This document shows, one piece after another, positions 1 through 20,447 of a stretch of DNA of 64,000 nt; the stretch's first letter is position 1, and each line of letters starts with the position of its first letter. A program made the position numbers and the translations under genes. The stretch is from Massalongia carnosa (Eukaryota). The notes below the pieces were generated by a model that was not told the origin of the DNA, made no database searches, and was given only the letters and a program-made list of their open reading frames with translations. Location of the stretch: the NCBI GenBank assembly GCA_965645245.1, contig OZ287086.1, forward strand, positions 124,001 to 188,000. The letters are read 5' to 3'.

Positions 1-428
1 CTCTAGTAATTGGTAACCTTTCACGTTTCTCGGCTTCACCGTTCTTTCGCTTTATGCCAGTAAGGATGCGATCTAACACCGGGTGATGAAATACGTCGAG
101 ATTACCGAGGCCCATATCTATCTGGCATGATCTTATGCCCGTCAAGTAGCTCTTAATAGTTTTTGGTTGCAGGCGTCGTTCACCCAACGCTGCGATCCAC
201 GAAGACAGCGTCCGGATGTTGGCTGGAAATGGTGGCGCGTTGAGGTTTACCCTACAGTAAAGAACGTATCCCTTTCTTGCCGTTGTGTATAAAGATCTTG
301 TCTTAGTGGCCAGGCCCCACCAGAGGTATCGTGCTGCGATTTCGTCTAGAGGTACCTCACTGTACCAAGATGGGGGTGGATCGCGTCCTATATTGCTGAG
401 GGTAGAGCCTGAAACTGAGGGATTTTGT
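1..428 (-). CDS. Tyrosine recombinase, N-terminal part (partial, no start ATG)
   Basis: Hand translation: ...RYLWWGLATKTRSLYTTARKGY...FPANIRTLSSWIAAL...IKSYLTGIRSCQIDMG...RERLPITR. This is homologous to the YR at 40367-41530 (LVWHGHSADTRKGY...SYLAGLRSYHVD...RRLPISK). The frame is open to position 1. Confidence 0.85.
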
Positions 429-2004
429 CAGCCAGTTTCTTCAAAAGTCCTCTAGACAAGAGATCAGCAATATAATTTTCTTTGGATGATATCCATCGCG
501 CTTCTATCTGGATATCATGTAATGCAGCTAGCATTGTAATTGCCCGCAGGGCATGCATTGCTTGGCCTCGTATAGAGGTTTTATTCACTCCTTTCGTGAC
601 AGCGTAGCTATCACAATAGAGGATTAAATGACTACCCTTGCATATAGGTAGCCACTTTTTCATAGCTTGAAGAATTGCTGTCATTTCTTTGACGTTGATA
701 TGCTTTGCCCTAAGGCGCGTAGTAAAGCGTGTGCTAAAAGCCTGCCGGGCTGCTTGTATATTATGCAAATTTTGATCCTCGCTGAGGATAAAGCCGCCCA
801 TACCATATGAGCCGGACGCATCTGTCCATATTCTCATAGTATGTCTAGTACAGTTGAGCAGATGTATGCCATTCCATTTAGGTAGGAAATGATGCCACCA
901 TAGAAGATCAGCCCTCATGTCCTTGTTAAGATGGATTAGTTTAGAGGTTACGCTTGCCGTAGCATTGAAAAGACGGCGTAGAAAGGCTCTTCCTGGTTTT
1001 ACCACTCTGGCTGCAAAGCATAAGAATCCTAGAAGAGAGTCGAGTTCCTTCCTGGGTATGGCTTTTTTATTCAAAGCTGCCGATACTAGGGTCTTTGCTT
1101 TTAGTAACTTTTCGGAAGGCAAGCGTGCTTCCATGAGCGCGGTATCGATTTCAATGCCGAGGAAATCGCAAGTCGTTCCAGTTCTGTTCTTTTCGAGCTT
1201 GATTTTCATGCCAAGATCTTTACAAATGTTGTGGAAAACTTGATCAAACTTTTCAGCATCTGGTCCGGTGCTGACTATTATTAAAAAATCATCCAAGTAA
1301 TGAATAGCGTCTTTCCAACCACAGTTGTACAATATCCAGTTGATACCCTTCGCGAACAGATCAAAAAGGAACGGCGACGTTCTCAGCCCAAAGGGTAAGT
1401 ATTTATCCATCCAAAAGGAATCCTGCCACTTGAAACCTAGTAACCACCAATCGCTTTTTGCTACTGGTATGTGGCGAAAAGCGTCCGCAAAGTCTCTTTT
1501 AATAAGAATACACCCTGGCCCGCGTTGCTCAATCAACCTAATGGCTTCGTCGAAGCTGGTATATTCCAGGGAGCCCCAGTCTTCCGGTATGTGGTCGTTG
1601 ACTGAGCTACTCTCCGGATACGATAGATGATGGATTCGCCGCCAACCACCGTTAGCCTTTGGTACAAGGCCTAATGGGGAACATATAAAGCAAGAAGGAA
1701 TGTTGTTGACTTTCTCCAACCGATTACTAGCTATTTGTTCTTCGAGGTCATTGGTAAGAACTTCCGGTGCCTCATTTGCAGAGGCAAGATTATCGCTAAT
1801 AATGAGTTGATGTGGTCCTGTATAACCAACTTTGGCACCGTAGGTGATGATATCGATAATTGTTTGTGTGTAAGTGCGATCCGGGTGATTGGCCAAATGT
1901 TTCTCCCAGCCTTCTTTCTTCAATGGGCCCGGTGGGATCTTTGTTAGATTGTCCGTCAAGGTGTATGGAAAGGACTCCGCGATGGATAAGAATGGGGCGG
2001 TTAG
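388..2004 (-). CDS. Reverse transcriptase-RNase H (pol) of element A
   Basis: SPLGLVPK..GGWRRIHHLS, DFADAFR, LPFGLRTSP, YLDDF; RNase H WTDASG...E...CDS...NYIADLLSR. The frame is open from the codon right after the gag stop. Confidence 0.92.
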   Translation of the reverse strand, partial: LTAPFLSIAESFPYTLTDNLTKIPPGPLKKEGWEKHLANHPDRTYTQTIIDIITYGAKVGYTGPHQLIISDNLASANEAPEVLTNDLEEQIASNRLEKVNNIPSCFICSPLGLVPKANGGWRRIHHLSYPESSSVNDHIPEDWGSLEYTSFDEAIRLIEQRGPGCILIKRDFADAFRHIPVAKSDWWLLGFKWQDSFWMDKYLPFGLRTSPFLFDLFAKGINWILYNCGWKDAIHYLDDFLIIVSTGPDAEKFDQVFHNICKDLGMKIKLEKNRTGTTCDFLGIEIDTALMEARLPSEKLLKAKTLVSAALNKKAIPRKELDSLLGFLCFAARVVKPGRAFLRRLFNATASVTSKLIHLNKDMRADLLWWHHFLPKWNGIHLLNCTRHTMRIWTDASGSYGMGGFILSEDQNLHNIQAARQAFSTRFTTRLRAKHINVKEMTAILQAMKKWLPICKGSHLILYCDSYAVTKGVNKTSIRGQAMHALRAITMLAALHDIQIEARWISSKENYIADLLSRGLLKKLADKIPQFQALPSAI

Positions 2005-3159
2005 TCATTGCCTTGATGGGAGAGGCATCGAATTTGGGTTAGAGGGTTGATTTTTTCCATTTGTACAGTCCATCGCCCGATGTTGCTTTCCACATTTCTC
2101 ACACACATGTTGGAATCTACAATATACGGGACAGTCTTTGCCATAGTTGTATTTCTTACAGATAATCTTTTCGCCTGAGGTTTTGAAAGCCGTAGAATTA
2201 TCGTCCGGTTTTGCAAAGTAAGCGGACGGTTTCCGCACAAGATGCCTTTCCAAGGAATGGTCCATTTCTTTCCATCCATCCGGGTTGTCAATCCCGCGAA
2301 AGGCTCGAGATTTGTGGAAATTCAAATGAAAGATGCGAACCGAGTCCCAGGTGTAGAAGGCGTATAATGATAGAAGATGGTCCTGATAAGCCATGAAGGC
2401 TCTCATCAGGTTTATCTGGAGACCGGGGTGTGCAAAGTGTAGTAGTATCATCCAATATACCCCGAGACATCGTATCAAATGAACTATCCCTTTGATATCT
2501 TTTAAGGAGCCATCTTCTTCTCTCGTGGCGATTTCCAGACCTTCTCCGAGTTTGACGTATCTAGAGTTGGTTTGAACTCCGTCGATGTCGGTACATAGCT
2601 TGGTAATGTTGATTGGGTCAAACGTATTCTCGGAGATTTGCTTTATCCATATGGGCTTGATAGTGGGATATTCGTTCATAAGAGAAACAAAACGAGGATC
2701 CATACCTTCTGTATACAATGAGTTTGGTCGATGCGGTGGAAATGATGTCGGAAATAATAGGGAAGGCTGTTGAGCTGAGGCTACTGGCCCAGGGACCACG
2801 TCTCGGGCACGTGCTTGTTGGGTTTCGATATCCCGCCTAAGACTTACTCTTTCTCTTTCCTCGGCTTCCCTGCGGGACATTTCGCGTTGTGCTCTAAGTT
2901 CAATAATGTCATCAGGGGTGCGAGAACGGGTTTCCGGTATAACAGGCCCTTGTGAGGAGGAATTAAACGCTGAAGATGGAAGAGGGGAAGGTTGAGGATG
3001 GCTTTGAAGGGTTGCCGTGCTGTCTTGTGAGTCGGGTACTTCGACGTCTGGGTTGGAGTTGGCTAGATTTGCCCTAGCTCTAGTTCTAGTACGGGCTAGA
3101 GTGCTGCCTTGTGTGCGGGAGGTAGGCTTGGTGATTCTGTTGGAGATGCGGGTGGCCAT
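2005..3159 (-). CDS. Gag-like ORF1 of element A
   Basis: ATG at 3159 (MATR). Disordered and coiled-coil N-terminus, helical core, C-terminal CKKYNYGKDC...C...H..C..C...H zinc finger as in DIRS-type gag. Confidence 0.85.
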   Translation of the reverse strand: MATRISNRITKPTSRTQGSTLARTRTRARANLANSNPDVEVPDSQDSTATLQSHPQPSPLPSSAFNSSSQGPVIPETRSRTPDDIIELRAQREMSRREAEERERVSLRRDIETQQARARDVVPGPVASAQQPSLLFPTSFPPHRPNSLYTEGMDPRFVSLMNEYPTIKPIWIKQISENTFDPINITKLCTDIDGVQTNSRYVKLGEGLEIATREEDGSLKDIKGIVHLIRCLGVYWMILLHFAHPGLQINLMRAFMAYQDHLLSLYAFYTWDSVRIFHLNFHKSRAFRGIDNPDGWKEMDHSLERHLVRKPSAYFAKPDDNSTAFKTSGEKIICKKYNYGKDCPVYCRFQHVCEKCGKQHRAMDCTNGKNQPSNPNSMPLPSRQ

Positions 3160-3586
3160 TTTTGGAGGAGAGGGATTTGAATAGAGTAAATTTAAGTGTA
3201 GTGGTTGTATAAATTTGAATTGGGTGAAAAGAAAACGTTGCAAACAGTGCTATCAAAATGCTATGCTTTTTGATTGTCTTGAGATGTGAGATGATGAGGG
3301 ATACCGTCTGGGACCTCCTCTTTATATATCTTCTTCCTATTCTCCTTGTCCTACTCTACCATCCCAGTATGCCCCATGAACGCGGCCCATAGCAAGGCAT
3401 ACACAAATCCGAAACCTAACTGTCGTCCGAAGGATCGATGCGGTGCTAAGATCTCTATGCCGTGCTGAGACATCCTTATGGTGCTGAGACATCTATGCCG
3501 TCCGAGAGATCCATGCGGTGCCGAAATCAAAGCGGGAGCTGTCTCGATTAACGACGCACTAGCTCTCAGCATAGCCGAACTAGATA

Positions 3587-4520
3587 GGAGTCGATTTTCG
3601 GGGAAGATCTCCAATAAAGATGGTCAAATGCAACGCTCGGTAATTGACGGGGCGCACTTGCTGCCGATAGACGGAGAAATACGTTCCTTTACCAATCGGC
3701 TCGCTATCACTCCACGATCGAATGGAGCGCGGCTTGAGCCCCAGACGCTGCAACCAGGCGCTAAATCCGCCGTATGTCAGCCCGAGTAGATTCGGGACAG
3801 ACCCCATCTGGCAGACCCCTCGTAAAGTTCTACTGCTTATTAGGACTAGCTTAAGCCTCACCCTCACACTAAATTAATAGTCCATCTACTAATGCAACGT
3901 CCCCCCGCAAGCTTCATATACCCAGTCACTTGCAACATTACTTATTGCTGTAAACATCACACGTAGCTAGCCTCGGATTATTTGATGAGGGGTAATCATC
4001 CCATATACGCTGCGGGAGAGGGAGGGGTGGAGCCGGAAGAGAATAAGGAAGAGGATAAGGAGGAGGTATGGAGGATGTTTCGCAATGAGTTTTCAGAGTT
4101 GAGGTCATCGCAATGAGTGTATATAATAGTAATGAAATATTAGAGTGTAATAGGTGTGACTTTTTCATACAGTCAATCTGGATATAACGACTTATCAGCT
4201 AGGTATATGTTGCATTAGTAGATGGACTATTAATTTAGTGTGAGGGTGAGGCTTAAGCTAGTCCTAATAAGCAGTAGAACTTTACGAGGGGTCTGCCAGA
4301 TGGGGTCTGTCCCGAATCTACTCGGGCTGACATACGGCGGATTTAGCGCCTGGTTGCAGCGTCTGGGGCTCAAGCCGCGCTCCATTCGATCGTGGAGTGA
4401 TAGCGAGCCGATTGGTAAAGGAACGTATTTCTCCGTCTATCGGCAGCAAGTGCGCCCCGTCAATTACCGAGCGTTGCATTTGACCATCTTTATTGGAGAT
4501 CTTCCCCGAATATCGACTCC
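3587..4520. mobile_element. Non-autonomous foldback/MITE-like DNA element with ~310-bp terminal inverted repeats
   Basis: 3587-3898 is the near-perfect reverse complement of 4209-4520. Flanked by TA on both sides (3585-3586, 4521-4522). ~310-bp core with no transposase. Confidence 0.85.
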
Positions 4521-7500
4521 TATGTCGCCTTTAAGCGGATGTTTGTTCGCAACCAAGCCTCGCAGGAGATTGACGATCAAGGACAGTTGTACGCCATCTG
4601 CCGGGAGATTCAGGCACTCATCCACCCCGCGCTCCGTGAGCATGAGAGTATCGTGAAGCTGCAAGCGATCGTTTGGGAGAACAGGTTTGGCGCAGGGTAT
4701 GAGAGCGGAATGCCAATGTGGCCGACGCTTGTGCTAGAATATTGCGAGACGACTTTGGCCGATCATCAGACAAACAACCCTCCAATCGATGCCACGGTCA
4801 AAAGCATCATCGGATCAAAGATAGGAAGCGGCTTGGATGCTCTGCATTCCGCGGGGATCTTTCACGGTGACCTGAAAACCGAAAACGTTTTACTCAACAT
4901 TGGGGATGGAGGATCGTTGGAGCCAAAGCTTGCTGACTTTGGTTGTTCGGCGATAATCGAGAATGGTGATGGCAAGAAGAAATATTGGATTGGTGGAACA
5001 TCCATGTGGCGCGCCCCAGAGGTAGTCATCTACTCTACTGTAGGGGTTTTGAGTTTAATCTGACGTTTTCGAGGCGGCCAGTGCCCAGACTATTTCGAAG
5101 ATGTCGATGCAATTGCCGCAACCGACTGGTATTCCTTGGACTGCTGTTGTAGCGCCTCTCGATAGATGGCAGAAACCCAATGGATGAATTAGAAATCATA
5201 CCGACGGAATGGTCTCAGGAAGAAAGACTGTTAGCGATGCAGTTTCTGAAAGAGACCGATTGTCTTTCCGCTCTCCTTGGTGACAGCACTGCGCCAGACA
5301 ACTTATTGCCCCTTAGTCGTTTACTAGCGAGCCTTTTGCTGAAAGACCCCATAAAAAGGCTAGAGGCTATAGAAAAATCCGCACTCGAGGTTGTACCGTT
5401 CCTATCGCAAAATGCCCGTATGATTCGAGACCGCGAATCGGATCTCGAATCAGATCCTATCAAGCTGGTTATCGCTTAGATATGCGTAAGCTATCTAGCT
5501 TATTTGTTAGGTAGGTTTACGTTCTAAAAGAGACTGGTTTTGGATTTGATAAATTGATCTGTTTATTTAGGATGGTTGTTGATGATAGAAATCATCTCTA
5601 GCTAAATATCTATTTTATCTTATCCCATCACCTTTTGTGCGTACTCAGTAGCCAGCCATTCACTAAGTGCAACACTTGCTAACCGAGTGACACTTCTATT
5701 AGTGGTGATATTGGTAGGCCACCTACCAATTAGTGTGGTCTAATCGGTTAACAGATCCTGTCCGTCTGCAATCACAGAACGAATATTTAAACGTTATCGA
5801 GCAACTATCAAGTCACCATCGTAGCAGCAATTCGGAATCGTCAGGGGAAGATAAGGAAGAGCCGGATCTTCTAAATATCTTTTCCTTCTTCTCAACTACA
5901 ACTTCGAAAAGTGTAGTTGTAGTTCCCAACTTCGTGAGTGACCTCATTCTTTAATGTATGTTATGGTAACCTTTTTAAAAACTAAAAACGTGGTCTCATT
6001 GTCTCCTTATGATTGGCAATTTTGACGCTTAAAATAGATACCTCTTTACCATGGGGCGTGAACATTCGCTCAATTCAGCCACGCGTTCTCGATTAACTCA
6101 GGAACTCCTAACAATATACGAAGATGACAACGGAACTGAACATCTTCACCAGTGCCTCGAGTGCAATTCTTTGAGTAAAATAGACATGGATCCGCATCGA
6201 TTGACGCCTGACGCTTTGATTAAGGAGTTATAGTAATGTAGCGAAAGTTTGAAACACACTTGCTTAACACAGCCATCACAACCCAATTCAGCACTTATCA
6301 AGTCAGCAGTTCCACGAGCTCTACATAATCTTACTTCATCCAAAGTCGTTCATCGAAAGGGTGAGGCGGCTTACCAACTCTTTTTGACCACTATCTCAGG
6401 ATTCGGCATCAAGAGAGATATTGCTCGTGCTTTTAAGTTCCTCGAAGATGCTGCCATGTCCGGAAGTCATTACTGCTGTGTTTGGCTCTGCCGACACTCG
6501 TTTATAAATCGAGATATTTCCCCTCAAATACCTTTTCGAAAATGGCTGGCAATAACTGTGTTTTTTGCAGCTGGCATTCCATCCGAGGCTTACCTCGCCT
6601 TAGCAGAATTAGATCCCATCTTAGCCAGAACATTAGCTGTGGCGAGAAGTAAAGCCTACAACGGCTCTACGGCAAGCTTTGTAAACACGAAATTCAACGC
6701 CGTTTGCGATTTGTATGAGACGACCTCGGATCTGTCAATGCAACTTTCCCCGATGGCTGATGGATCACCTGCAAGACAGGACGAGTTTTTTTAAAACACG
6801 TTATTGCATTTAACCGCTGGATCGGAAAACTCCAACACATCAGTCCTGGAATACTGCACTTCCGTCCTGAAAATCGACAAGAACGTGCGGAACGCCGATG
6901 GAGTGACACCGTTGCTCATGGCTTGTCGTGCTGGGAGGGAGGAGAAGATTCTGGCACTGCTGCACCTTAACGTAGATGTCGATTTGGTTTATGCTGGCGG
7001 TAAAACTCCGCTGCACTGGCTTGGCTTATTGCCGGACCCTACACGAGTATTGGAAGAATTCCTCCTACGCGGTGCCGATATCAATGCGCAAGTAACTCAA
7101 GAAAGGGCGCTACCAAGTTTTCTTGGCGGGTTGAAAAGTTTCTATGTGAAAGGGCCTCCTCTCAACTGGGCAATGGCTATGGGAAATCAGTTATGACTTT
7201 ATGGAGTGATCTACGAATACTGAATAATTATGCCAAACCCGAAGAACAAGAGAGGGCTCCGTTCCGTGATTGGGCTGAAGTCAATTCTTTTTATCAATAC
7301 CTTGTCTCAGAGGCTGTGTCTGAGTGTCGGGGAGAAATCCTAGAAATTATACTGAACGGTCTCAGCAAGAGCATGGCGACTATAAAAGACGCAGATCCAA
7401 GCAGCCTTAAGCACGCAAAACTTCCGCTCTCACATCCAGCTTGGGTCGAACATCGCCTAGTTCACGAAGCTGCAGTCAGGGGTGATCCTGAAATTTTACA

Positions 7501-8290
7501 CATCGTTCTCGACTACGGGGGTGACGCAACCAGTATGGACGGGTTTCAACGGAGCACCTTACATCTATTATCAGTTTTCTCGAATAACGCGGAGTCAGCC
7601 GGTAACCTTCTCGACCACGGTGCTCATTCTCTCCTGGACCACAGGACTGAGATGGATGGCATGACTGCATTTATGACGGCAGTGGCTAACTGTAATTTCA
7701 TAGTTGCAGATCGTCTTCTTCGCAAAACCCCTAACACCGAGCGCCAGACTTTACTCTCAAGCCGTCCGGCAGGCATGGCCTTTGCAGAGCTATCGTTGTT
7801 CGGCCACCTTATCGCTTGGTCGACGACTGTGGGCGAGAAGCCGGTAGAGTACCTCTGCAGCTTGCCAGAAATCCGAGAGACCCCGGATTTGCTCTTTATC
7901 GTAGACGAGACCAACAAATACTCCGCCCTTATGATGGCCTGCGGTATAAAGTCCGGTGGAGGCATACTCGACACGGAACTATTTGCTTGTTCTCGAAGGA
8001 GAAGGACCATCAATCTGTTGGTGCGCCAATTTCCCAAACAGCACCATATCGACAGTAGAGATAATCACGGCAACACTGCACTTCATCTTGCAGCCTTTTT
8101 AGGAAGCAAAGACACGGCAACTGCGCTTCTGGAAGCCGGCGCAAACCCGAATCTTCTCAACTCCTCAGGAGCCAGCCCCTTGGATGTTTCTTTGTCTCTG
8201 ATCCCTCATACCTCTGGGGAAATCGGGCTTCAAAGAAATTTTTGGTGGAGTGTTTTGAAGCTGGAAGAAACGATATTTGCATGCAGTTGA
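4521..8290 (+). pseudogene. Protein kinase + SEL1-like + ankyrin-repeat protein (disrupted)
   Basis: YVAFKR (subdomain II), CREIQAL, LVLEYCE, HGDLKTENVLL, KLADFG, GT..WRAPE, DWYS, KDPIKR; SEL1-like GEAAYQL...GFGIKRDIARAFKFLEDAA; ankyrins GVTPLLMAC, GKTPLHWL, GNTALHLAA. Disrupted by stops, frameshifts, a solo LTR and the 5' foldback element. Confidence 0.85.
5458..5753. mobile_element. Solo LTR (degenerate)
   Basis: TSD GATCC at 5453-5457 and 5754-5758. Termini TATCAA...TTAACA (TGTCAA...TTGACA after G>A changes). Removing it restores the reading frame ESDP|VRLQSQNEYL. Confidence 0.8.
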
Positions 8291-8584
8291 GGAGTAAAAG
8301 TGCAACGCATGCACTTCCTCTGGCAGTGAAGAATGCCTGGGCTACGCACTTACCTTATCCCTGGGTTCGAAAAATGCAAACATTGTTCTCGTGAAAGTGC
8401 CTTGCAAGCCAAACCGAACAGATTGTTGAAATGAATTAATCACTTGATGCATGTACGAGTATTTTTGAAGAGAATAATTTCGATTATTGTCTATCGTGGG
8501 TGTTTTATGAACATCTATCAACTAAACTACCCTTAGTCTATTCTGGTCAAGCAGTCAATCAATTACCTAACCTTGTCTATTAGA

Positions 8585-10464
8585 TTAACGTTTTAGTATA
8601 ACAGCAACACTGATAATCTTACGCAAAACATCTACCAAGCTTGTACACAACGTCAAAAAAAAAGAAGCTTGGGGGAAGCCTTCTGCCTCAAACTCACTCA
8701 TACGAGTACCCTGCCCTACCGAGTCGTGTTCAATGACTCGATCCGTCAAACAAGTTTCGACCACTTCTTGATATATTTTGCCACATCTGAACCCAAGGCT
8801 TTCTGCACACAAGATTAAGCGGTTTTGCCAGACTTGTGGCTTTCTTGAGTCCCTGTATTTATCTGGCTGGGCCCCAATCAAACTCCAGTTACCAATCTCG
8901 AGAAGCACAACTCCGAGCGCTTAGATGTCGTACTGTTTGCGGAATCGCGGTGAGGACGGAGAAGTATCAGACGGCCACAAGGACGGGTGGCGGTAATCGT
9001 TGCTGCTTCGGTCCAAAGGATTCTCCAGCGAGGGTGTGGTAGGGCGGTCAGGACGCGAGAAGTCGAAACCTAGCAGGAATGGGTGGGATGGATCGAGGTC
9101 TGAGGATGATGAAGAATAAGTCGGTGACAGGCTGAAAAGAACATTTGATGAACTGACTGCTTTGTGAAGCCAATCAGACGCATGAAGCTGAAGAATGATA
9201 TTACAGAGAGCCGTAGCAATCTGGAACCGATCACCCAGGAACGGAGGCGTCGTTGTGCCATTTATGTACTCATGGAGAGAGTAAGGGCGAGACGATATTG
9301 ATGTTGGCAATGCAGTGTTTGATGGTTGGGGTAGTCTTGACATAGCTAGAGGCCTAAACAGAAGACCGTATCTCTCAATAGACTTTTCTGCAAGATACTT
9401 CGTGTCTTTGAAGTGACCAATGCATCTGAGAAGCCCGAAATCGGCTGATCTCTCCGAGCTAAGTACCACAGCAAGCGTCTTGATGCGCGATCGTATAGTT
9501 TCCATGTCATTGAAATTTAATGATCGGTCCACATATCTCCATTCCAGAATCGCGGGTTCATTGCTTCCATCCGCCCTTGCGACTGAGGCAATGAATCTAT
9601 TCTGGCCGGCTTTCTTGGTATCTCTAGACTTGAAACTCACCAAATCCGTCACACTGGTTGACGGTAGCAGGAGTTCATTTGCAAAGGATGGACTCGACTC
9701 GTTCACCACTGCGGTTAAGGCAGCTCGCCTCAGATCTGCGCATGAAGCGAGCAACTCCATTGTTTTGTTCCGTTTCGCGTTGTTCTTCACTTCTGACAGC
9801 GTTGCCTGATCCAAAATCCCCGGAAGCACCACAGATGGTAAACCCTTTGCCAGCGCAATCCACATGATTGCGGGCAACGCAATCCACATGTTTGCGGGCA
9901 ACGCAATCCACAGGCTCTAATTCAGCAGTCGCAAGTCTTCAACAAGTCTCCTAAGCTTGACGCTGTCGCTCAGTGCCCAACGGAGCTTTCCTAGCCGCGA
10001 TGTTGAGACGACGATCGAACGTTCCATCGTCGGCCGTTTGACTTCCGCAATATTCAACGCGGCACAGCTGCGTATATCGTCCAGACTCAGATCCTGAAGC
10101 CCAATCATAGGATCTGGGGTTGAATCCTTACCAGCCTCGCAAATTCTGACCCCGTACCCAAAAATATTACGTCGATGTCGTCCAATAACAATTTGATAGC
10201 GTCGAGACGCGCAACAACGAATTTCTGCGTCTCGTACGATTCTCTCAATAGCAATTGGCACCCCTGCGCCTGAGAAATCCCAAGATGTCTGCCCCAGAGT
10301 TGCAGCCTCCGTCTCTCAACTTCAAGATGCACACCTAGTAGATGTGCGTCTTTGCCGATGTCATTTGCAGAGCGGATGAAAAAATCATACGCTCTATTGC
10401 AGGTCTGGAACAGAGAGAGCAGGCTCGCAAGACCTATTCCTCCGATGATGAGTTCCACCGGCAT
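8585..10464 (-). pseudogene. HeLo (prion-inhibition/HET-S N-terminal) domain + pseudokinase, MLKL-like architecture
   Basis: N-terminus MPVELIIGGIGLASLLSLFQTC...LEVERRRLQLWG...KLRWALSD..KLRRLVEDL is HeLo-like. C-terminus LHASDWLHKAVSSSNVLF, PFLLGFDFSR, YRHP, YDI*ALGVVLLEIG is a kinase fold. One frameshift (~10165) and two in-frame stops (9917, 8921). Confidence 0.8.
9853..9912. repeat. 24-bp tandem repeat (~2.5 copies) encoding (L/M)WIALPA(N/I)
   Basis: GCAATCCACATG(A/T)TTGCGGGCAAC repeated directly. Confidence 0.9.
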
Positions 10465-13400
10465 TGTGAGCCAGAGAATACTATGAAAGAAGAAAGTGAA
10501 GTCACAAATAATCAAATAATCATCCACTTCTCCTTCTGACGAGTACGCTACTTTCGATTATCAACAAGCGGTATTATTTCTGGCTAGTTCATGTGACCTC
10601 GTATTGCTTCTGTTTCTAAGGTTGGCGGAAACACAGCGATCTGCACCTCGCTGGCGCCGTCACTCTCGCCGGCGCCTCTACCTAGCGCCCCCTTTCGGGC
10701 CTTGGTGCAGATCGCGGTGGATGCTCCCTCTACCTCTGCGGCTGAGACCTGGAGTGGGTGGGCGGGTCAAAAACTACTATGCAGTGCTACCTCCGAATCC
10801 AAGATGATGAGGAGATGTAGGACTGCTTTTGACCTCTATATAGCCTCCATCTCCCCTGTCATCCATCCTTCCCTATCTGATCCCCCGTCGTTATCCGAAC
10901 CAGCCAAAACCGAAGAGGTCCGGATTTTGCATTACCTGTTGTCCCCGTCATGCGTGGAGAACCGCTGGTAACCGATCCGCTGGTAGCCGAATAGCATCGG
11001 TCCCGTACTAGCTCTCGCCATAGACGAACTAGTTAGCTGCGATTAGTTTACGATAATGCTTCTACACTACCATATCTTTATAACGTTACCTAATAGTTAC
11101 GGTTGTATCATTATGTAACGTTGGGTAATGTTTTCTATCAATGTTTTACCACCATGAGGGGATAACGTTACATAATGATGAGTAGCATAATTGGGTAACC
11201 ATTACCCAACAATCGGGTAACCATTACATCATTTAACGTATAATGATGACTCATGATGCATTAAAACTTAGTTTGGAACATGCGACTCAATATTACATGC
11301 TCACTGGCGCCGCCGCCAAATCTGAATCCTGAATTAAAATCGAAGAAAAAACTTGTATTTAATCTGTCTCGAGGATATCTAATGATTAGACTTTCTCATA
11401 TAGACAACGATACCCAGATCACATTATCTTCATATGTAAAACCTGTACAGTCTATGTCTGCCCGGCTCTTCCCGCCTTCCTTTCTTTAAGCTCAGTCCGA
11501 CCGATCAAGAAACAACAGTCCAGTGGATCAATTCCAAGCCTAGAAAAACTTAACTCGCCTTATTCGGTAGAATTATCGTTATCTTCATCCTCTGCCAGCG
11601 GTGTTGTATTATTCGAATCTAAAGCAGTATCGAGATTGGGATTTTGATCTAAAGTTAAGCCGTCACTTAGAGACGCAAGACCATACTCTAATACGTCAGG
11701 GGTATAAAAGTCCCTGTTTAAATTAGTTCATGAAGAAACTTTACCACAGAAAGATAAGAGTTATTCAGTTTGACGTACCAGTCTGCGTCTATATTCATCA
11801 AATTCTTATCAACCCGGAACCAGAAACTTCCTTCTTTCTTTTCCCTCTGCTCAAGAACAACATATCTCTATCATTCATTGATATTAGCTTTTGCAATAAA
11901 CAAGATGCAAGATAATAATATGAAGGGAAGCCTACCCAACAAGCTGCTACTTCCCACAAAGACATGTCATTGTCCAAATGTTTGGTCTCCGAGTCCACTT
12001 CTGACCTTAGGCATTCGGCAAAATCCGCAAGAGGTTTATCGACAATATCTTGACACTTGAGGAGTCGTTCCTTTAGTTTAGCCTTTTCCTCTATGCGGAT
12101 TTTCCCCACTAAAGCGACAGCATTGTCTGGAAGTATTAGATCGGAAGGAAAATAACCTCGTAATGAGGTCTTAACTATAGTATTAGCTATGGAATACCAA
12201 ACGAGCCTAATCATAACGTACTAATACTTGCTTGGGATCGCTCCATGTGCTTTCTTTGTATCGTTCCAAAGTTAAGCGTCGGCGTATTATGGGTCTGATT
12301 ATCTGCAAACATGAGCCACAAGTATTATACTGAAAGATTACACAAACCGCCCGTAGCTCTGTGGCATATTTTGTAGGTTTGGCTTCCTTTTCAATCCCTG
12401 TGATCTCCTTCCTATTTTGCAACTGAAGCTTGTATATAGATGCTAGTTGGTACCCCGTGGAACTCTAATATGTATCATTAAAAAGCATGTGCTAAATAAA
12501 ACATGAAAAATTAAACGTGGTGCGATTACATATTAAGAGAGGGAACAAGTTCATGCCATACCTTGATAAAAGTTTCTGTAGCACGTCGACCTAGATAGAA
12601 ATCTAATAGGGACTATGTACGAAAACTAGTAATATGAAGAAAGAAAGCTATATATAGATCGCCGCTTAATAAACACTCATACCCGTGCTAAGCCTACTGC
12701 AGGTTTTCATTACCATCGTTGAACTGTTTATACCACGAGTATTGATAATGTCACTACAGGCAGTGCTAGATCTGTTTTCGGTTAGATAAGGTAAATAGCC
12801 CTACGTCATGTGTAGCCTGATCTTAGAGCGGTGTAATCCGTTACATAATTAGAATTTTCTTTTTATTTAAAGATAAGAATTCAAGTTTTATTCAAACAAT
12901 ATGCAAGTACGTCGCGTAATGGTTGGGTTTTTCGTCACAAAATTGCTTTTTCGTCTTCGAATTTGAAACGGGGAGACCTTCTCCCAGCAGGCATTCACTA
13001 CTGGAAGATAGGATCCACAGGGGCTACACAACGTGATGGTCACAATAGAGGTATAAATAGGTTGGGTCGGGTCAAAGGGTAGACTAAATGCTACCCTTTT
13101 AAAGTGCTTGATCATTGATCTATATAGGATAGGACAATCCATAACCTAAGCTCTTCTTCCATACCTTGCCCATACTACCTGGTATTTTCGGACTCCGAAA
13201 TACTTCGGACACCAAAAGACACGGGTAGATAAGACTAGGCAGGTGAGCTAGGGGAGGTGAGGCGAGGCGAGGGGATAATTCGTGTACTACGAAAACACCT
13301 CCATAATAAGTTAAGTCCCCACACTATGCCTAACTGGGTTAGGCGGGACCTTATTGTCTTGGTGGTTGTTTTGGCTGTACGTATCCCACATAGCTACATA

Positions 13401-14615
13401 GGCCAGTCTTACGTTCAACGAACGCATACTAGGCCTACCCTATTACATCTAGCCCCTATCGAAAGTGCTAAGACAGCCACAACAACTACAAACAGCTATT
13501 CCGCAGCCGCCACCAGAGGTCAAGCCTCCGAGGCCCCCCCGATTCCCCGCCGCACCAAGCCAATCACTTCTTCAAAAAAAACCGAACCCTTACCACAAGA
13601 AGTTCGTCAGGCCAGAGCAATGACCGTAGTCATTTCCAGCGCAAGCGACAAGGAAAAAATAAAGAACATGTCCACAAAAGATCTCGTGGAGACACTACAA
13701 GCAGAAACGGAGGGGATTCGGGGAGTATCGCGACTCATCAGCGGAGATCTCAAAATTCACACGGAATCACTAGAAGTCAAAAAGACTCTTCAAGAAAAGT
13801 CGGAATGGACCCGAAAAATAGCCGACTCAGCGGCGATTAAGACACGGACATACTCGGTCAGAGTAAATAGTGTCAAGATGGAACACATCAAAACCGCCAA
13901 CCAATCGCAGGCCATAGGGTACCTGCAGACCGCTAACGTTCGCCTGTACCCGGACCTGCAGATAAAGAAAATAGCCTGGTCCACTAGGGCTATAAGGGAA
14001 AAGAAGGCGTTCTCCACGGTACATATAGAAGTCGCCACCGCCGAAACGGCTAATCGGGTCATAGCCGAGGGTATCATAATCGACTATGAACTCAAAGACT
14101 GTGAAAGATTCACAAAGGGATGCACCATGACGCAATGTTTTAATTATCACAATTATAGTTATATAGGTCGATCATTTATCAACCCCACCGCCTGCGGTCA
14201 CTGTGCTGGGGCTCACCTAGCACTGAAGGCAACATGGAAAAAACAGGTAGATATCGAAGATGTGCTGCATGCAGTGAAAAGGGACACGAAGCCTGGTCAA
14301 CATCCTGCGATATCAGGAAAGTCGAAAAACGCAAAGCAGAGAGGGCCATGCAAAAACGGGTCCTATTCTACACAGTAGTCGCCCCCGTACCGGCCCCGTT
14401 CAGGTTCAAGAGCGAAAACATCAACCCGGTCCTTGGCAGCACAAATAGCAACAAGAGGAAAACCGCACCCCCCTCCGATACCCCCCCGAATACCCCATGA
14501 ACGGGAACATCCTGGCTGACACTGTAATACGGATGGCGCTAGAGGGATACGTGATCGCCTACGGCGGTTGCGGGATTAACTAGCATGAGCCAAGCCGTAG
14601 TACTTAGTCGCATAG

Positions 14616-17600
14616 TGTCAAACCTGAATGTGGTCGATTCTCATCGCCGATCCTCGACCCCCTGTCGCGGCAGATGCCGCTAAGCTACGCCATTTCTTCC
14701 ACACCTTTACCCCTCAATTTGCCGGGGTTAATATCGTTGCTGCCATGACCCCTTTTCCCTTCTATATAGGTAGCTAGATGTGGGCATTTCCCACATACAG
14801 AACACAGCCTTTTTCATCCTTCCTGAATTCATGTGAAAGGTTGACAGTTATGAGCCCGGGTTAGCTGAATTTTTCGCTGCCTCCGTCTTAACTTTAGTTA
14901 TTGGTAAGCTGATTTATCGCTGCCTTCATCGACCCCGAAATATCCTAGGCAGGCTGAGTATCGCCGCCGGAATTATCGTATCTCTCATGGAGCATCGCAG
15001 AGTTGATTTATTCCTCGTGCTTCTGTTTTCCTTTGCCTTTTTGGTCGTTTCCCTGTTTTTCCCATCTGTCTCCATCTTTGGTCGGTTATCCCAAATGGAA
15101 GACTACTCGTCGGGATCGTCTCGGAAACTCATCGTCTCGGCTCTGACGCCTAGGACCTACAATTCCTGGTTGTCGGAAATCAAGGGTATCGCAGTACGAT
15201 CTCAGGTATGGGAGTACGTCGATCCGGAAGGATCAGAATCGGAACCTACCATTCCCAAATTTCCCAAATTCAGTGATTACGTCAAAGTCGTCCCGGTTAA
15301 TACGCCTGGCACTGACTCTACCAATATCCCTACGCCTGCTATTGTCGCTTCTCAAGGTTCTTCTCAAGGGACAGTTCTCGGCGATTTAAATGGCCCGCCG
15401 GTCCTGATTCCCGAACCATGTTCTCGGTATGCCGATCTCTCGGAATCACAGAAGGAGTCGTACAATGCAGATGAACGGTCACATCGAGGGCTTCAGGCAG
15501 ATGCCAGGGCCGCAGCCATGGGAATTGAGAAGGTTCATACGGTCATCCTAGAGTCGGCTAAAGATTATGTCGCCAGGAATGTCAGATCATCCTCGGTTCG
15601 AGAAATTCTTCAGCCCCTGGCCCATAAATTCAAAAAGAGTCCGGACGAAGTTCAAAGGCAGATCGATCGCCAATACGACGAGTTGAGAAATTCTCACCCG
15701 GTGAAAGGGAAGATCGAATCTTGGATCTGCCAATGGGAAACGCTGAGGGAAGAAATCGTTGCTTTGAAAGTTGAACCCATCTATAGTGAGTATATCTACA
15801 CTCAGCACTTTCTGAAAGCCGCTCGGATATGGGCACCATTCTTTTGCGACACCTGGATCAAGATACGAAATGTATCAGGTCGTCCCCTTAAATTCTTCGA
15901 GGCCGCCAATGAGTATCGGACCGAGATAGAAGAAAATGCAATCAGCACTGGTCGTCGTCAGCAGCTCTCGGCGAATTCCGCTTCTCTGCAAGGACAGTCT
16001 TCTTCCGATCAGGGAAATTCCACTTCTGACGATAGCAAGTACGGCAATAGCGAATGCCTTTGCGGCGAAACTCACTCCTGGAAAAGATGCCCTTATTTGA
16101 CAGTCGAGTCTAGAATCTCGGGATGGAAATTCAATAAGGAGATACGCGACCACATCCGACAAAAAATCGGGTCCAATTCCAAGCTTTATTGGTATGTCAA
16201 ACGCGCCGCTACATCCGACATTCTCAACGGCATCTCCGAGCCTGATGAACCTTTGAAACCTCGATATCGAGGAAGAGGTGGAGGTCGAGGGGGTCGCGGA
16301 GATGGAGGTCGTGGCCGAGGCAATGGCAATGCTCCCGCCGAGCTCCCTGTTGTCGAGAATGCTCCAGTCTCTTTTGGAAATACTATCTCGGATCGCGACA
16401 ATCTGCTTCATCTCAGCGTCTCCTACGACTCGGGATGCTCCAATCATCTGACCTGGGACAAATCCCGGTTTATTGACGAAATCATCCCGGCATACGAATG
16501 GGTCTCGACTCCCGACGGAGATCTCCTTATTGAAGGTTTTGGGACAATGTTGGTGAATGGGACACTAAAAGGGAAGAATCAGCCTCTGCATTTTCGACAC
16601 ACAGCATACGTTCCCGACTCATCGGTGACTTTGATTTCGGTCAGCAAGCTGAAAAAGGATGGATTTCTGTGGAACATGCATACGGACACGGTCGAGAAGA
16701 AGGGTATTTCAATCTTCGAATTGGAAGAGCATTTCGGTCTCTACACTGCCGAGTATCGTCCCGTTGGCCACGCTGGTGCTTTCGCAAATTTCGTCGGTTC
16801 CCGAGTCTCGGCAGATGCAATCCCAAAAGGCACGCCATGGAAATTTCATCTCCGCCTAGGACATTGCCAACCGGAAGTCATTAACCAGTTGTCGAATCAG
16901 AAGATGATTGAGATTTCAAGAGGTAACAGTGGTCAAGATGCTCCAAAGACAGTGAAATGTGAGACGTGCGCATTGTCAAAAATGCATACACTAGTATCAA
17001 GGGTCTCGGCTACTAAAGCCACTAAACCATTCCAGCGTCTTCATTTTGACCTCATTATTTTGAAAAGGACTGCTTTCGATGGGACCACCTGCGTCGCTCA
17101 TTTTCAGGATGATTTCACCTCGTTTCATTGGGTCTTCCCCCTGCAAGATCATAAGCAGGAGACACTACTTAGGATTGTCAAGCATGTCATAAATCGGTGC
17201 GATCGACTCGGAGCCGAATTCGGTCTTTTCGTTCAGACCTTTCGAATGGATCAGGAAACGTCGGTTGGAGACGTCATTCAGGACTTCGTCAAGGAACAGG
17301 GAATCGCGTTTGAATGGTCCGCAAAGCATACTAAGGAGCAGAATGGGTCGGCTGAGAGGGCAGGAAGCCTTTTGACTCAGAAGGCTAGATGCATTCGCAT
17401 CGGCGCCGATTTGCCAGAAGATCTGTATCCCGAGTGCTATCTCGCTGCTGGACACTTGCTAAATAGGACGCCGACAAAAGGACTAGATTGGAAATCGCCT
17501 CACATCTCCCTGCACCGAGCCCTGAAGAAGCCATACAATTCCGAAATTGGTCATCTCAAGGTCTTTGGGTGCAAGGCATATCCCCTTTTGAAAGGTAAAG

Positions 17601-20447
17601 ATGCCCCGCCAAAAAGTGAGAAACTAGCCCCTCGAGCATTTGTTGGCTATCTGGTCGGATACGATTCTACAAACATTTATCGAGTCTGGAATCCCGAGAC
17701 CTGGTCGGTCAGCGGATATAGAGATGTTATCTTTGATGAGGATCAAACCTTCTCCACATACGTCAAAAAGGATCTGATTCCCGAAGAGAAGGTGGCCGAG
17801 TTTGTAGAGCTGGAAGTTTTCGATGCTGCTCCCTACATTGTTGATTTGGCAGAAAATGAGGAGCAATGGCTGGCGACATCTGTGCGCAATCGGTCATTTG
17901 CTGATCCTTCTTCGTCGGTTGAAAATTCGTCCGCACTGGATGTGCCCGCGTCGTTGACTGCGAAAGACGTCCCTATCATGCCGAGACATTCACCGAGTCA
18001 GCAGCATCTTCCGACTCCCGAAAGCACTCCGCCTCCATTGACTTCAGCACCTGCACCTACATCTTCTTCGTCAACATCTCGCGACAAACGGGTGGTAAAA
18101 GACAGTCTTCCGAGTAGCATAGATCTACCGACTGATCTGCCAGAAACCGGCCGGACGCCTCTCGGCATTGCCGAATCTTTTGGCACCGGTCCCAGTAGGA
18201 ATATCGGATCTGCCAAATTGGATGTCAGCAATATCGTCGAAGGAAAACGAGTCAGAAAACCGAAGCAGAAATTCGCAAATCTTGCAGCACCTCTCGGCAT
18301 CAGACCACTCGGCATCGCTTCGGAACCACTAGGGAATACAAACTCGAGATTGGATGACGGGATGAAGGAAGTTTATTTGGCATTTGCAGTGACCACTAGG
18401 TCGACCAGATTGCATAGGGACAGCCTGCCGCCGCCGCCGAAGCAGTGGCGAGGTATGCTTCGACATCCCCATGCAGAAGGATTTCGCAAAGCAGCCGAAT
18501 TTGAATATCAGACTCTTCTCAGAATGGACACCTTCGTCGTCATTCCCAAAACTTCCAATCAGAAGCCGCTTCCACTAATGTGGGTCTTTACATACAAGTT
18601 CGACCCGGATGGCTTTCTAGTAAAATACAAGGCACGCCTGGTAGTCCGAGGGGATTTGGAAGAAGTCTCGGCGGAAGATGTATACGCCTCTACGCTGGCA
18701 ATTAAGATCTTCAGGTGCCTCATGGCCCTGACGTCTGCTTTCGGACTCAGGACAAGGCAGTTTGACGCGATCAATGCCTTCCTAAATGCCAAAGCCGATA
18801 GGGTCATCCACGTGTACATGCCAGATGGTTTCGTCATCGAGGGGAAATGCTTGCTCCTGGTCCGGGCTTTGTACGGGCTTCGAAAATCGCCTCTACTATG
18901 GCTACGAGAATTTTCCAAAGCACTCACCTCATTGGACATGCAGCAGATCCCTGGCGAGCCCTGCCTTTTTACCGACTACTCTGGCATCATCCTCTTTTTC
19001 TATGTGGATGACATAGTCATCATCTTTCCGGAAAGTAGAGCTGCAGACGTAGATCTGCTGATTCAGAAGTTGAATGCTCGATTTGAATTACGCGACATGG
19101 GCCAATTGAGCTTCTTTCTCGGTGTACGGATTGTTCGAAATGCTGGCGACATTTATCTTTGTCAAGACTCCTACATGGACAAGTTGGCAATTGAATACGA
19201 GATAGACACGTCTAAATCTCCGTCATCCCCGCTACCGTCAGACTTCATCGCATTCACCTCTGCCTCGGCAGCTAGCCCAGACTCGGACTCGCCTCGGTCA
19301 GTCGACCAATCCCTGAGGCAGGAATATCGTAAAAAGGTAGGATCGATCTGCTATCCCGCGAATATCACTCGGCCGGACGTTGCCAAAGCTGCCTCCAAAT
19401 TGGCAGAGCATCTCACCTGTCCCGGTCTGGAGCATCTAGACGCGGCAAATCACTGCCTGCAATATCTACACGCGACTAAGTATCTGGCGATAAAATACTC
19501 ACCCTCGGGAGGTGGCGAGCTTACCGTGCAGTCTCCGGATGATGATCAGCTCTCGGCAAAGCATGTCTTCGAAAACACTGCCGATGCCAGCTTTGCAAAT
19601 AGTCCCGAGCGACGCAGCTACGAGGGTTTCACATTCAAGCTGTATGGCGGCATGATCGACTGGGCTGCCAGGAAGCAGGCGACCGTCTCAACTTCGACGA
19701 CAGAGGCAGAATTGCTTGCCCTTCTCCATGCCGGCAAGGCATGCATCTGGTGGATTAATTTCTTTGGCAAGCTGGGATTCGACTACGACCATTCGGTCAA
19801 AATCTACAATGATAACATGCAGACCATCCGCATTCTGACGTCGGAACAGCCCAAAGTTACCACCAAACTTCTGCATGTAGACATCGCTCAGTTGTGGTTG
19901 AGACAGAGCGTTCAATTTGGTCATCTCAATGTGGGTTATCTACAGACCAACCGGATGACGGCAGATGGTCTCACCAAGCCCTTGCCTCCGCAAAAGCATC
20001 GTTCCTTTCTGGAAATGCTAGGCCTTATTGATATCAAGTGTCTGATTTAGGAATGGGGCAGGCGGGAGTGAACCGGGCGGAATTCCTCTCGGCGGGCAGA
20101 AATTTCTTTTCACTGGCATCTCATTTTGATTTTGCAAGAATTGCACCTTTTTCTCGAATGGGAATTGCTTCATGTTTTCTTCTTTTGGTCAGGATGCTTC
20201 GCATCCTGGGGGGGTGTGTCAAACCTGAATGTGGTCGATTCTCATCGCCGATCCTCGACCCCCTGTCGCGGCAGATGCCGCTAAGCTACGCCATTTCTTC
20301 CACACCTTTACCCCTCAATTTGCCGGGGTTAATATCGTTGCTGCCATGACCCCTTTTCCCTTCTATATAGGTAGCTAGATGTGGGCATTTCCCACATACA
20401 GAACACAGCCTTTTTCATCCTTCCTGAATTCATGTGAAAGGTTGACA
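14616..20447 (+). mobile_element. Intact Ty1/Copia LTR retrotransposon
   Basis: 231-bp LTRs 14616-14846 and 20217-20447 appear identical (TGTCA...TGACA). TSD CATAG. PBS GTTATGAGCCC at 14847. G-run PPT before the 3' LTR. Confidence 0.97.
14987..20050 (+). CDS. Copia gag-pol polyprotein (possible real start at ATG 15095)
   Basis: Uninterrupted 1687 aa: CLCGETH...C knuckle, protease YDSGCSNH, HLRLGH..CETC, integrase D,D,E, RT YVDD, RNase H ADASF...ADGLTK, in Copia order. Confidence 0.96.
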   Translation: MEHRRVDLFLVLLFSFAFLVVSLFFPSVSIFGRLSQMEDYSSGSSRKLIVSALTPRTYNSWLSEIKGIAVRSQVWEYVDPEGSESEPTIPKFPKFSDYVKVVPVNTPGTDSTNIPTPAIVASQGSSQGTVLGDLNGPPVLIPEPCSRYADLSESQKESYNADERSHRGLQADARAAAMGIEKVHTVILESAKDYVARNVRSSSVREILQPLAHKFKKSPDEVQRQIDRQYDELRNSHPVKGKIESWICQWETLREEIVALKVEPIYSEYIYTQHFLKAARIWAPFFCDTWIKIRNVSGRPLKFFEAANEYRTEIEENAISTGRRQQLSANSASLQGQSSSDQGNSTSDDSKYGNSECLCGETHSWKRCPYLTVESRISGWKFNKEIRDHIRQKIGSNSKLYWYVKRAATSDILNGISEPDEPLKPRYRGRGGGRGGRGDGGRGRGNGNAPAELPVVENAPVSFGNTISDRDNLLHLSVSYDSGCSNHLTWDKSRFIDEIIPAYEWVSTPDGDLLIEGFGTMLVNGTLKGKNQPLHFRHTAYVPDSSVTLISVSKLKKDGFLWNMHTDTVEKKGISIFELEEHFGLYTAEYRPVGHAGAFANFVGSRVSADAIPKGTPWKFHLRLGHCQPEVINQLSNQKMIEISRGNSGQDAPKTVKCETCALSKMHTLVSRVSATKATKPFQRLHFDLIILKRTAFDGTTCVAHFQDDFTSFHWVFPLQDHKQETLLRIVKHVINRCDRLGAEFGLFVQTFRMDQETSVGDVIQDFVKEQGIAFEWSAKHTKEQNGSAERAGSLLTQKARCIRIGADLPEDLYPECYLAAGHLLNRTPTKGLDWKSPHISLHRALKKPYNSEIGHLKVFGCKAYPLLKGKDAPPKSEKLAPRAFVGYLVGYDSTNIYRVWNPETWSVSGYRDVIFDEDQTFSTYVKKDLIPEEKVAEFVELEVFDAAPYIVDLAENEEQWLATSVRNRSFADPSSSVENSSALDVPASLTAKDVPIMPRHSPSQQHLPTPESTPPPLTSAPAPTSSSSTSRDKRVVKDSLPSSIDLPTDLPETGRTPLGIAESFGTGPSRNIGSAKLDVSNIVEGKRVRKPKQKFANLAAPLGIRPLGIASEPLGNTNSRLDDGMKEVYLAFAVTTRSTRLHRDSLPPPPKQWRGMLRHPHAEGFRKAAEFEYQTLLRMDTFVVIPKTSNQKPLPLMWVFTYKFDPDGFLVKYKARLVVRGDLEEVSAEDVYASTLAIKIFRCLMALTSAFGLRTRQFDAINAFLNAKADRVIHVYMPDGFVIEGKCLLLVRALYGLRKSPLLWLREFSKALTSLDMQQIPGEPCLFTDYSGIILFFYVDDIVIIFPESRAADVDLLIQKLNARFELRDMGQLSFFLGVRIVRNAGDIYLCQDSYMDKLAIEYEIDTSKSPSSPLPSDFIAFTSASAASPDSDSPRSVDQSLRQEYRKKVGSICYPANITRPDVAKAASKLAEHLTCPGLEHLDAANHCLQYLHATKYLAIKYSPSGGGELTVQSPDDDQLSAKHVFENTADASFANSPERRSYEGFTFKLYGGMIDWAARKQATVSTSTTEAELLALLHAGKACIWWINFFGKLGFDYDHSVKIYNDNMQTIRILTSEQPKVTTKLLHVDIAQLWLRQSVQFGHLNVGYLQTNRMTADGLTKPLPPQKHRSFLEMLGLIDIKCLI

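Follow-up and report, generated by a model that had tools for sequence, protein, structure and literature searches.

A stretch of 64,000 nucleotides from Massalongia carnosa (assembly GCA_965645245.1, contig OZ287086.1, positions 124,001 to 188,000 of the forward strand; hereafter the window, whose own numbering is used for its features) was found to carry two neighboring pseudogenes, one (K) encoding a protein kinase followed by ankyrin repeats and the other (H) a HeLo domain joined to a DUF7580 pseudokinase. The K and H families are conserved neighbors. The reading that we favor on balance is that the locus represents a dead and rearranged copy of a conserved ascomycete K–H module, in which K would phosphorylate the MLKL-like H and thereby release killing by its HeLo domain. 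The copy in the window cannot work in this genome. A preliminary description of this DNA had noticed the two genes and proposed for them a cell-death role of the RIPK/MLKL kind; its observation is confirmed by the present analysis and its interpretation is partly supported.

To place the pair in context, metagenome contigs were scanned with a four-sequence alignment of H, the best 80 of the 126 confirmed matches being kept as loci, and a hidden Markov model (HMM) of the K family was run over all six-frame open reading frames (ORFs) of these loci. A tree of 85 H sequences (FastTree) divided them into clade A (32 rows, support 93), comprising 27 loci together with the H of the window, P0166, P0174, P0005 and P0177, and clade B (53 rows). 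With IQ-TREE (LG+G4), 55 non-redundant rows were split with a Shimodaira–Hasegawa-like approximate likelihood ratio test (SH-aLRT) value of 99 into 22 rows (21 of clade A and L069) and 33 others; by both methods the H of the window falls inside clade A. Some upstream flank is available for 18 of the 27 clade A loci, the other nine beginning inside or at the gene. In 17 of these 18 (L001, L002, L005, L007, L015-17, L018, L019, L026, L031, L032, L039, L043/45, L056, and L078), an ORF of the K family lies on the opposite strand 95–1083 nt upstream of H, measured from ORF to ORF, and once near-identical loci are merged the count is 14/15. Absence of synteny elsewhere had been set in advance as the refutation test for the pair, and it is because a K-family gene adjoins H at this frequency that the two families are regarded as conserved neighbors.

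The arrangement is constant, all 17 pairs being divergent (head to head). The ATG-to-ATG spacer, for which the first ATG of every ORF was used, was measured in seven loci: five have 195–416 nt, and the remaining two 868 and 1244 nt. Across the clade A loci, 18 K-family ORF matches (E up to 1e-10) fall within 39,987 bp of proximal upstream sequence versus 1 in 164,413 bp elsewhere, this single match being a kinase-TPR gene of L001. Eight of the partners (L002, L015, L018, L026, L031, L043, L056, and L078) show Pkinase followed by ankyrin repeats in Pfam, that of L078 being one ORF of 1420 aa, and in L005, L007, and L019 the contig extends no further than the kinase. Most of the paired H genes are intact, with a single ORF of 518–657 aa in L002, L005, L007, L018, L031, and L078. 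The expectation that such genes would be syntenic elsewhere was thus upheld as to a K-family neighbor in 17/18 loci, but not as to gene order, which is head to head in these loci and not tail to tail as in the window.

Kinase neighbors were also identified in clade B. In 7 of the 13 loci of its subgroup B1 (L022, L024, L035, L051, L054, L073, and L075), a different type of kinase, with an N-terminal extension and Pkinase E-values of ~1e-25 to 1e-33, lies on the opposite strand upstream of H; in two of these loci, L022 and L035, the kinase is followed by ankyrin repeats, with a GGACT domain in addition in L035. Among the clade B loci that lie outside B1 and have 1.4 kb or more of upstream sequence (27 in all), none has a K-family ORF in this position. 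These data bear on the proposal that the adjacency in the window is due to chance and that the two families are functionally unlinked, which we consider highly improbable. Transposons and immune-type genes abound in the region and the orientation of the pair is atypical, but such a proposal does not sit well with the 18 versus 1 enrichment and constant orientation in relatives, with the recurrence of kinase-ankyrin partners in two separate H clades, or with K and H tree subclades that mirror one another.

Other neighbors of H were recorded in the same loci. A gene for a patatin-like phospholipase lies on the opposite strand upstream of H in 10 loci of one part of clade B (L025, L028, L033, L042, L044, L046, L052, L057, L065, and L067), a further neighbor of a death-related kind, and Zn2Cys6 genes adjoin seven clade B loci. 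Two further kinase genes were examined as candidate partners and rejected. The kinase-TPR gene downstream of H in L001 encodes an HRD kinase outside the K family, and the kinase of L080 (5222–6385, minus strand), which is convergent with H and lies 161 nt downstream of it, is a stand-alone kinase of ~390 aa and not a kinase-ankyrin protein. The latter is the only other tail-to-tail kinase among the 80 loci.

The relatives of H, both close and distant, possess HeLo and DUF7580 (PF24476) domains, some with weak Pkinase matches in addition, and many ascomycete clusters with this combination are present in the ESM Atlas. For the gene in the window, HeLo was identified in ORF 10105–10557 (minus strand, E 5.6e-13) and the H-family HMM matched with an E-value of 3.4e-78. 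DUF7580 was not among the Pfam matches of the window's H ORFs (0 families at E up to 0.01), this copy being split by a stop codon; the domain was found in P0001, which is 96% identical to the window's H (31.6 bits against a gathering cut-off of 27), and in P0005 and P0006 (35.6 and 47.2 bits). A model of the intact relative P0174, calculated from a 28-sequence alignment (mean predicted local distance difference test score 71.8, predicted template modeling score 0.72), has an N-terminal helical bundle (helices 5–103 and 155–187), further helices at 190–246 and a kinase fold. Searched against the PDB with Foldseek, it returned at least 500 kinase matches, kinases throughout, including MLKL structures 6bwk, 4btf, and 4m67; the human MLKL pseudokinase ranked 12 and full-length mouse MLKL 15 among these.

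A profile of the 28 H members was also compared with the sequences of solved structures. HET-S/s HeLo came first (3.9e-15), and the next ten distinct sequences were all MLKL (2e-10 to 6.5e-9), with LIMK1 and IRAK4 behind at ~7e-8; the E-values of the MLKL match are modest and the match extends over only 127 profile positions. Across the 28 sequences WLHK is invariant, GF[DE][FY]S is conserved and the catalytic aspartate is gone. The family motifs LH..WLHK..S.N.LF and GFE.S align with LH..LH(R/GK)..SS..L and GFEL of mouse and human MLKL, and the window's H itself reads WLHK where the HRD loop would be expected and GFDF in place of DFG. Judged by profile and predicted fold, H is MLKL-like in architecture (HeLo, helices and what appears to be a catalytically dead kinase fold), with the MLKLs as its closest kinase-like relatives among solved structures. 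The fusion of HeLo to a degenerate kinase fold and its likeness to MLKL, both put forward in the preliminary description, are thus borne out by Pfam HeLo, DUF7580 in P0001, the family HMM, the P0174 model and the profile.

In an exhaustive search with the kinase ORF of K, 9851 proteins matched at E up to 0.001; from the 150 listed, 29 relatives were chosen, namely the nearest short ones together with long ones. Pkinase followed by ankyrin repeats is present in 18 of the 29 (726–1485 aa), and K is homologous to fungal kinase-ankyrin proteins of ~1100–1400 aa, which align with it by tblastn over 4327–8242 with changes of frame. All K-family kinases, that of the window included, share HGD (not HRD), DFG and APE, and none of the 25 aligned members departs from K240, D260, the HGD aspartate or APE. 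Non-RD kinases have been linked to innate-immune signaling in plants and animals. The SEL1-like repeats formerly ascribed to K could not be established, as the Sel1 match reaches 17.7 bits (E 0.0056) against a Pfam cut-off of 30.7, and none of the 29 chosen relatives has Sel1 at E up to 1e-5. The C-terminal tails of the family vary: the partner in L043 (5003–7864, minus strand) ends in a WW domain, and a ZZ zinc finger is found at the end of two kinase-ankyrin proteins (P0061 and P0084).

The domain content, the decay, the adjacency and orientation in relatives, a partial co-inheritance and the affinity of H to MLKL are established. From these we infer an action of K upon H, with phosphorylation as its means and cell death as its outcome. 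In this scheme K would be a non-RD kinase, catalytically competent and extended by a long ankyrin tail, that senses a cue through its repeats, and H would be an MLKL-like executioner, its HeLo domain a membrane-attacking bundle held in check by the C-terminal pseudokinase. Transcription of the pair in intact relatives is divergent and starts from a short common spacer. Upon sensing the cue, K would engage and phosphorylate the pseudokinase of H, which would free the HeLo domain to permeabilize the membrane, giving a fungal analog of RIPK3–MLKL.

The link between K and H may be real and follow another logic: K may restrain H, the two may form a heterodimer scaffold without phosphotransfer, or they may simply respond to stress from a common bidirectional promoter. 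Conserved adjacency and short shared spacers show linkage and not direction, other H clades adjoin patatin genes rather than kinases, and a plant MLKL paired with a NOD-like receptor (NLR) is, in the accessible portion of the report, auto-active upon perturbation of its kinase active site (bioRxiv 10.64898/2026.08.07.743466). Nevertheless, we judge these variants unlikely, given that retention of the full catalytic motif set in 25/25 K members argues for a catalytic role and that loss of its own catalytic aspartate throughout the H family, with WLHK invariant, is what would be expected of a substrate or switch. A broader form of the phosphorylation model, that ascomycetes carry a widespread and hitherto undescribed necroptosis-like two-gene module in which a non-RD ankyrin sensor kinase phosphorylates and so activates an MLKL-homologous HeLo-pseudokinase whose gene stands head to head with its own, is offered tentatively, as a possibility about which we are doubtful. 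If the GFE pseudokinase did reflect common descent, kinase-controlled killing of the MLKL type would predate the split of fungi and animals.

Several observations weigh against the phosphorylation model or against the standing of the window's pair as partners. The solved kinases nearest to the K profile are generic tyrosine kinase-like (TKL-like) ones (JAK, IRAK4, Roco4, LRRK2, and DLK), and of 2522 solved sequences the best 60 include no RIPK, a RHIM not having been searched for; the RIPK-like nature once proposed for K is therefore an analogy only. The context described above comes from metagenome contigs and not from annotated genomes, and one clade A locus (L047) has no K in 4.3 kb upstream. 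The genes of the window are convergent versus divergent in all 17 clade A pairs, and no remnant of K upstream of H, or of H upstream of K, was detected in the window at E up to 10. In L001, the nearest relative of H for which context is available, only an N-lobe fragment of K (E 1e-15) lies upstream and H has an in-frame stop; because of these two features the module seems to be decaying in the sublineage of the window. Furthermore, the window contains transposons, HET and NLR genes, and unrelated death-related genes could be gathered in such a region.

The trees are also in part unfavorable. The K subclades (L007,(L078,L031,L043/45)) and (L019,L026,L015-17) mirror H subclades, and distances in K and H are correlated (Mantel r = 0.39, p = 0.005, 11 pairs), so that the trees agree in part. 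The K of the window groups instead with seven database kinases lacking visible genomic context (support 99), outside the partner subclades. Its row in the distance comparison is saturated and uninformative (rho -0.22, p 0.52), and an approximately unbiased (AU) test did not reject the K grouping predicted by co-inheritance (p 0.25), a result that indicates compatibility only. Congruence of the two trees, which had been suggested as a check, was accordingly seen for some subclades but not for the K of the window.

Two histories fit the arrangement in the window, a rearranged cognate pair or the inner survivors of two tandem modules. According to the second, both genes derive from the module families but were never partners, K and H being left over from H1<- ->K1 H2<- ->K2, or K having been brought beside an unrelated H through rearrangement driven by transposons. 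A convergent order is the expected junction of two tandem divergent pairs, and H is multi-copy in close relatives, with overlapping but different ORFs per contig (P0001/P0164; P0158/P0166). The flanks hold a gypsy element (391–3249), the inverted duplication of the K 5′ end (3584–4523) and a copia element (14837–20047), and K stands outside the subclade that the H tree predicts for it. Against this, the missing partners leave no trace at E up to 10, the predicted K grouping was not rejected by the AU test, and sequence from three of the four sequencing runs (X2–X4) covers the K–H spacer, though no listed contig of X1–X4 bridges both genes; the contigs of X2 reach 8416 on the K side and begin at 8432 on the H side. 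We regard this history of copies that were never partners as fairly unlikely and retain the rearranged cognate pair as the preferred account.

The features of the locus are listed in Table 1. The stop codon of K (8288–8290) and the natural stop of H (8619–8621) leave 328 nt between the genes, in agreement with the tail-to-tail order and distance of ~300 bp first noted. The kinase motifs VAFK, HGDLKTEN, DFG, and APE were all located as described in ORF 4419–5063 (plus strand; Pkinase E 6.5e-22), and the ankyrin repeats reported to follow the kinase were found as Ank_2 in ORFs 6795–7196 (E 1.8e-7) and 7004–8290 (E 2.8e-16), both on the plus strand. K does not begin at 4521, as had been stated, but ~220 nt further upstream, with an ATG near 4300. 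The glycine loop (IGKGTYFSVY, ~4411–4440), VAxK, the catalytic-loop aspartate, DFG and APE are all readable; because the glycine loop lies in a different frame from the remaining motifs, this copy of K is dead.

Both genes are indeed pseudogenes, as was proposed, with at least nine lesions in K and four in H, the latter together with an in-frame duplication of 24 nt. Four sequencing runs (X1–X4) span the whole stretch at 95–99% identity and were compared with it. Lesions of K begin with a frameshift that separates the glycine loop from VAFK (near 4505), in a stretch through which P0008 and P0010 are unbroken, and a TGA at 5061, which also terminates P0007; these two are common to the window and relatives, and several of the others are private to this genome. 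A possible intron after APE was discounted, as the stretch is collinear with P0011 and merely holds the TGA at 5061. There follow a frameshift near 5127 within the DWYSL/GLLL stretch, a TAG at 5150 (TGG in X2), and an insertion of 301 nt that is skipped by the contigs of X2 and X3 and around which word depth is several-fold raised. No second copy of the insertion was found within the window; it is probably a small dispersed repeat, because it is missing from those contigs and lies in a high-depth stretch. A 2-nt deletion (CC) at 6040, just past the probable intron, breaks the frame, the CC being present in all four runs, and further lesions are stops at 6231–6236, a TAA at 6792 (G in all four runs) and a frameshift near 7190. 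A word-based search with the middle piece of K gave no match to the longer proteins.

The 5′ end of K is duplicated as an inverted repeat comprising ~90 nt upstream of the ATG and the first ~75 codons, the glycine loop included, and P0008 matches both arms by tblastn. Loose ends at 4209 in X2–X4 read into the start of the repeat's spacer in reverse complement, and word depth is several-fold raised over 4000–4441 in X1, X2, and X4. The right arm stops at 4523, ~15–20 nt beyond the first frameshift of K, and this frameshift therefore lies inside both arms.

H is intronless, residues 2–632 of the intact P0174 (632 aa) covering 10458–8622 in three frames by tblastn; 8585–10315 (minus strand) is a single frame interrupted by two stops. 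Within HeLo, a deletion of 1 nt near 10160 is absent from X4, which is in frame there. The first stop (TAG 9917–9919) corresponds to E in 5/5 covering cluster members from other contigs and the second (TAA 8921–8923) to Y in 9/9 other covering members, while a 1-nt deletion near 8654, where X2–X4 have an extra A, derails the last 14 codons. The tandem repeat has one 24-nt unit more than in relatives, with the frame kept. Repeat-induced point mutation (RIP) was rejected as the cause of decay because transitions are balanced (X1: A>G 29, T>C 29, C>T 29, and G>A 27) and because the residues lost to the two stops of H are E and Y rather than Q or W.

Table 1. Features of the K–H locus in the window and of the related locus L001 (L001 positions refer to its own contig).
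Feature	Position	Strand	Basis or remark
K pseudogene (kinase and ankyrin repeats)	4300..8290	+	Pfam, tblastn, at least 9 lesions
Kinase core of K	4411..5021	+	glycine loop in frame 1; VAFK, HGD, DFG, APE in frame 3
301-nt AT-rich insertion in K	5451..5751	+	joint 5450>5752, depth tables
Probable intron of K, 104 nt	5934..6037	+	GTGAGT ... TAG
Ankyrin region of K	6795..8290	+	two frames, frameshift near 7190; Pfam Ank families, translations
Inverted copy of K 5′ end	3584..3898	-	314/315 nt identical; other arm 4209-4523, spacer 310 nt
Spacer between two convergent stop codons, 328 nt	8291..8618	.	
H pseudogene (HeLo and DUF7580 pseudokinase)	8619..10464	-	tblastn, Pfam HeLo, family HMM
HeLo domain of H	9920..10464	-	split by 1-nt deletion near 10160, ended by TAG 9917-9919
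Tandem repeat in H, 24 nt, 2.5 copies	9854..9912	-	WIALPANM / WIALPAIM / WIAL
Kinase-like (DUF7580) domain of H	8619..9600	-	broken by TAA 8921-8923 and deletion near 8654
L001, K fragment	9075-9482	-	
L001, H	9959-11830	+	
L001, HRD kinase-TPR gene	13052-15127	+	

Fungal HeLo/HELL executioners are switched on by NLRs through amyloid templating. The K–H pair resembles the HET-S/NWD2 clusters of this kind in that a HeLo executioner is encoded beside a presumed repeat-bearing activator, but it differs in that the neighbor has a kinase instead of NACHT/NB-ARC and H ends in a pseudokinase instead of a prion-forming domain. No NACHT was found by Pfam in K or the partner genes, so the pair is not of the het-S/nwd2 type, amyloid motifs not having been searched for. 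The amyloid- and NLR-independent nature first proposed for the pathway is putative, its basis being this absence of NACHT from K. With vertebrate RIPK3–MLKL, H shares a killer domain of helices, linker helices and a pseudokinase that lacks the catalytic aspartate and reads GFE at the DFG position, and its conserved companion K has an intact set of catalytic motifs. In contrast to that system, K is linked to H by gene adjacency and not by RHIM amyloid, has ankyrin repeats and a non-RD (HGD) catalytic loop and is not specifically RIPK-like, and by sequence the N-terminal domain of H matches fungal HeLo/HET-S and not the four-helix bundle of MLKL. The phosphorylation step, known from vertebrates, is one that we only infer for the fungal pair.

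Among described systems of fungi, HeLo/HELL proteins fused to kinases or pseudokinases (PF14479 with PF24476) are identical to H in architecture; the window's copy is a pseudogene, unlike these, and the published accounts, in their accessible parts, name no partner gene. The same parts of the literature report two- and three-gene NLR-amyloid clusters (PMC10197012, PMC12881547) and gasdermin genes adjoining genes of proteases fused to WD40, TPR, or ANK repeats (PMC12881547). The latter resemble K–H in placing a pore-former beside a repeat-fused enzyme, though here the enzyme is a kinase, the executioner MLKL-like and the presumed activation phosphorylation instead of cleavage. In plants, the wheat R3NLR/R3AK is described in the available portion of the report as a genomic pair of NLR and MLKL (bioRxiv 10.64898/2026.08.07.743466), and like K–H it would have an MLKL-type executioner within a genomically paired receptor system (see also bioRxiv 10.1101/681015, as far as its accessible text goes); the partner there is an NLR, unlike K. 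In those same portions the authors of the plant work propose that plant MLKLs are convergent with animal MLKLs.

The HeLo-kinase fusion is thus already in print, while the K–H gene pair was not found described. No kinase neighbor of fungal MLKL-like genes is described in the accessible text of PMC10197012, PMC9815663, bioRxiv 10.1101/681015, PMC8778642, or bioRxiv 10.64898/2026.08.07.743466, and no mention of "DUF7580" or of the pair was found in the literature searched, which lay outside subscription journals and supplements. Control of the pseudokinase-fused subset of HeLo/HELL executioners is not addressed in the accessible parts of the papers cited, and the divergent kinase-ankyrin neighbor represents a concrete candidate for their activator. 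Such an activator would add a third kingdom to the kinase- or receptor-coupled MLKL systems, and the parallel with gasdermin-protease pairs points to a general design of a repeat-fused enzyme beside a pore-former. The locus in the window is itself a relic, and its value is as a pointer to intact K–H pairs.

The window as a whole is transposon-rich, with gypsy, copia, long interspersed nuclear element (LINE), Mutator-like (MULE) and DDE elements, and also contains a HET gene and a broken NACHT-ankyrin NLR. The NLR-type gene (46798–51096, minus strand) extends over several frames, with DUF7708 and NPHP3_N-NACHT pieces ahead of a highly regular ankyrin array whose ORF encodes 773 aa (Ank_4, E 6.8e-92), and is probably another broken immune-type gene. 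The HET-domain ORF (37623–39725, plus strand) is open over 701 aa (E 2.6e-28) and lies between transposon remnants. The copia-type polyprotein (plus strand; RVT_2, SH3_retrovirus, Pol_BBD) is encoded by an uninterrupted ORF of 1737 aa, because of which the element may still be active. Other remnants, of gypsy, LINE, MULE, and DDE elements, occupy most of the window.

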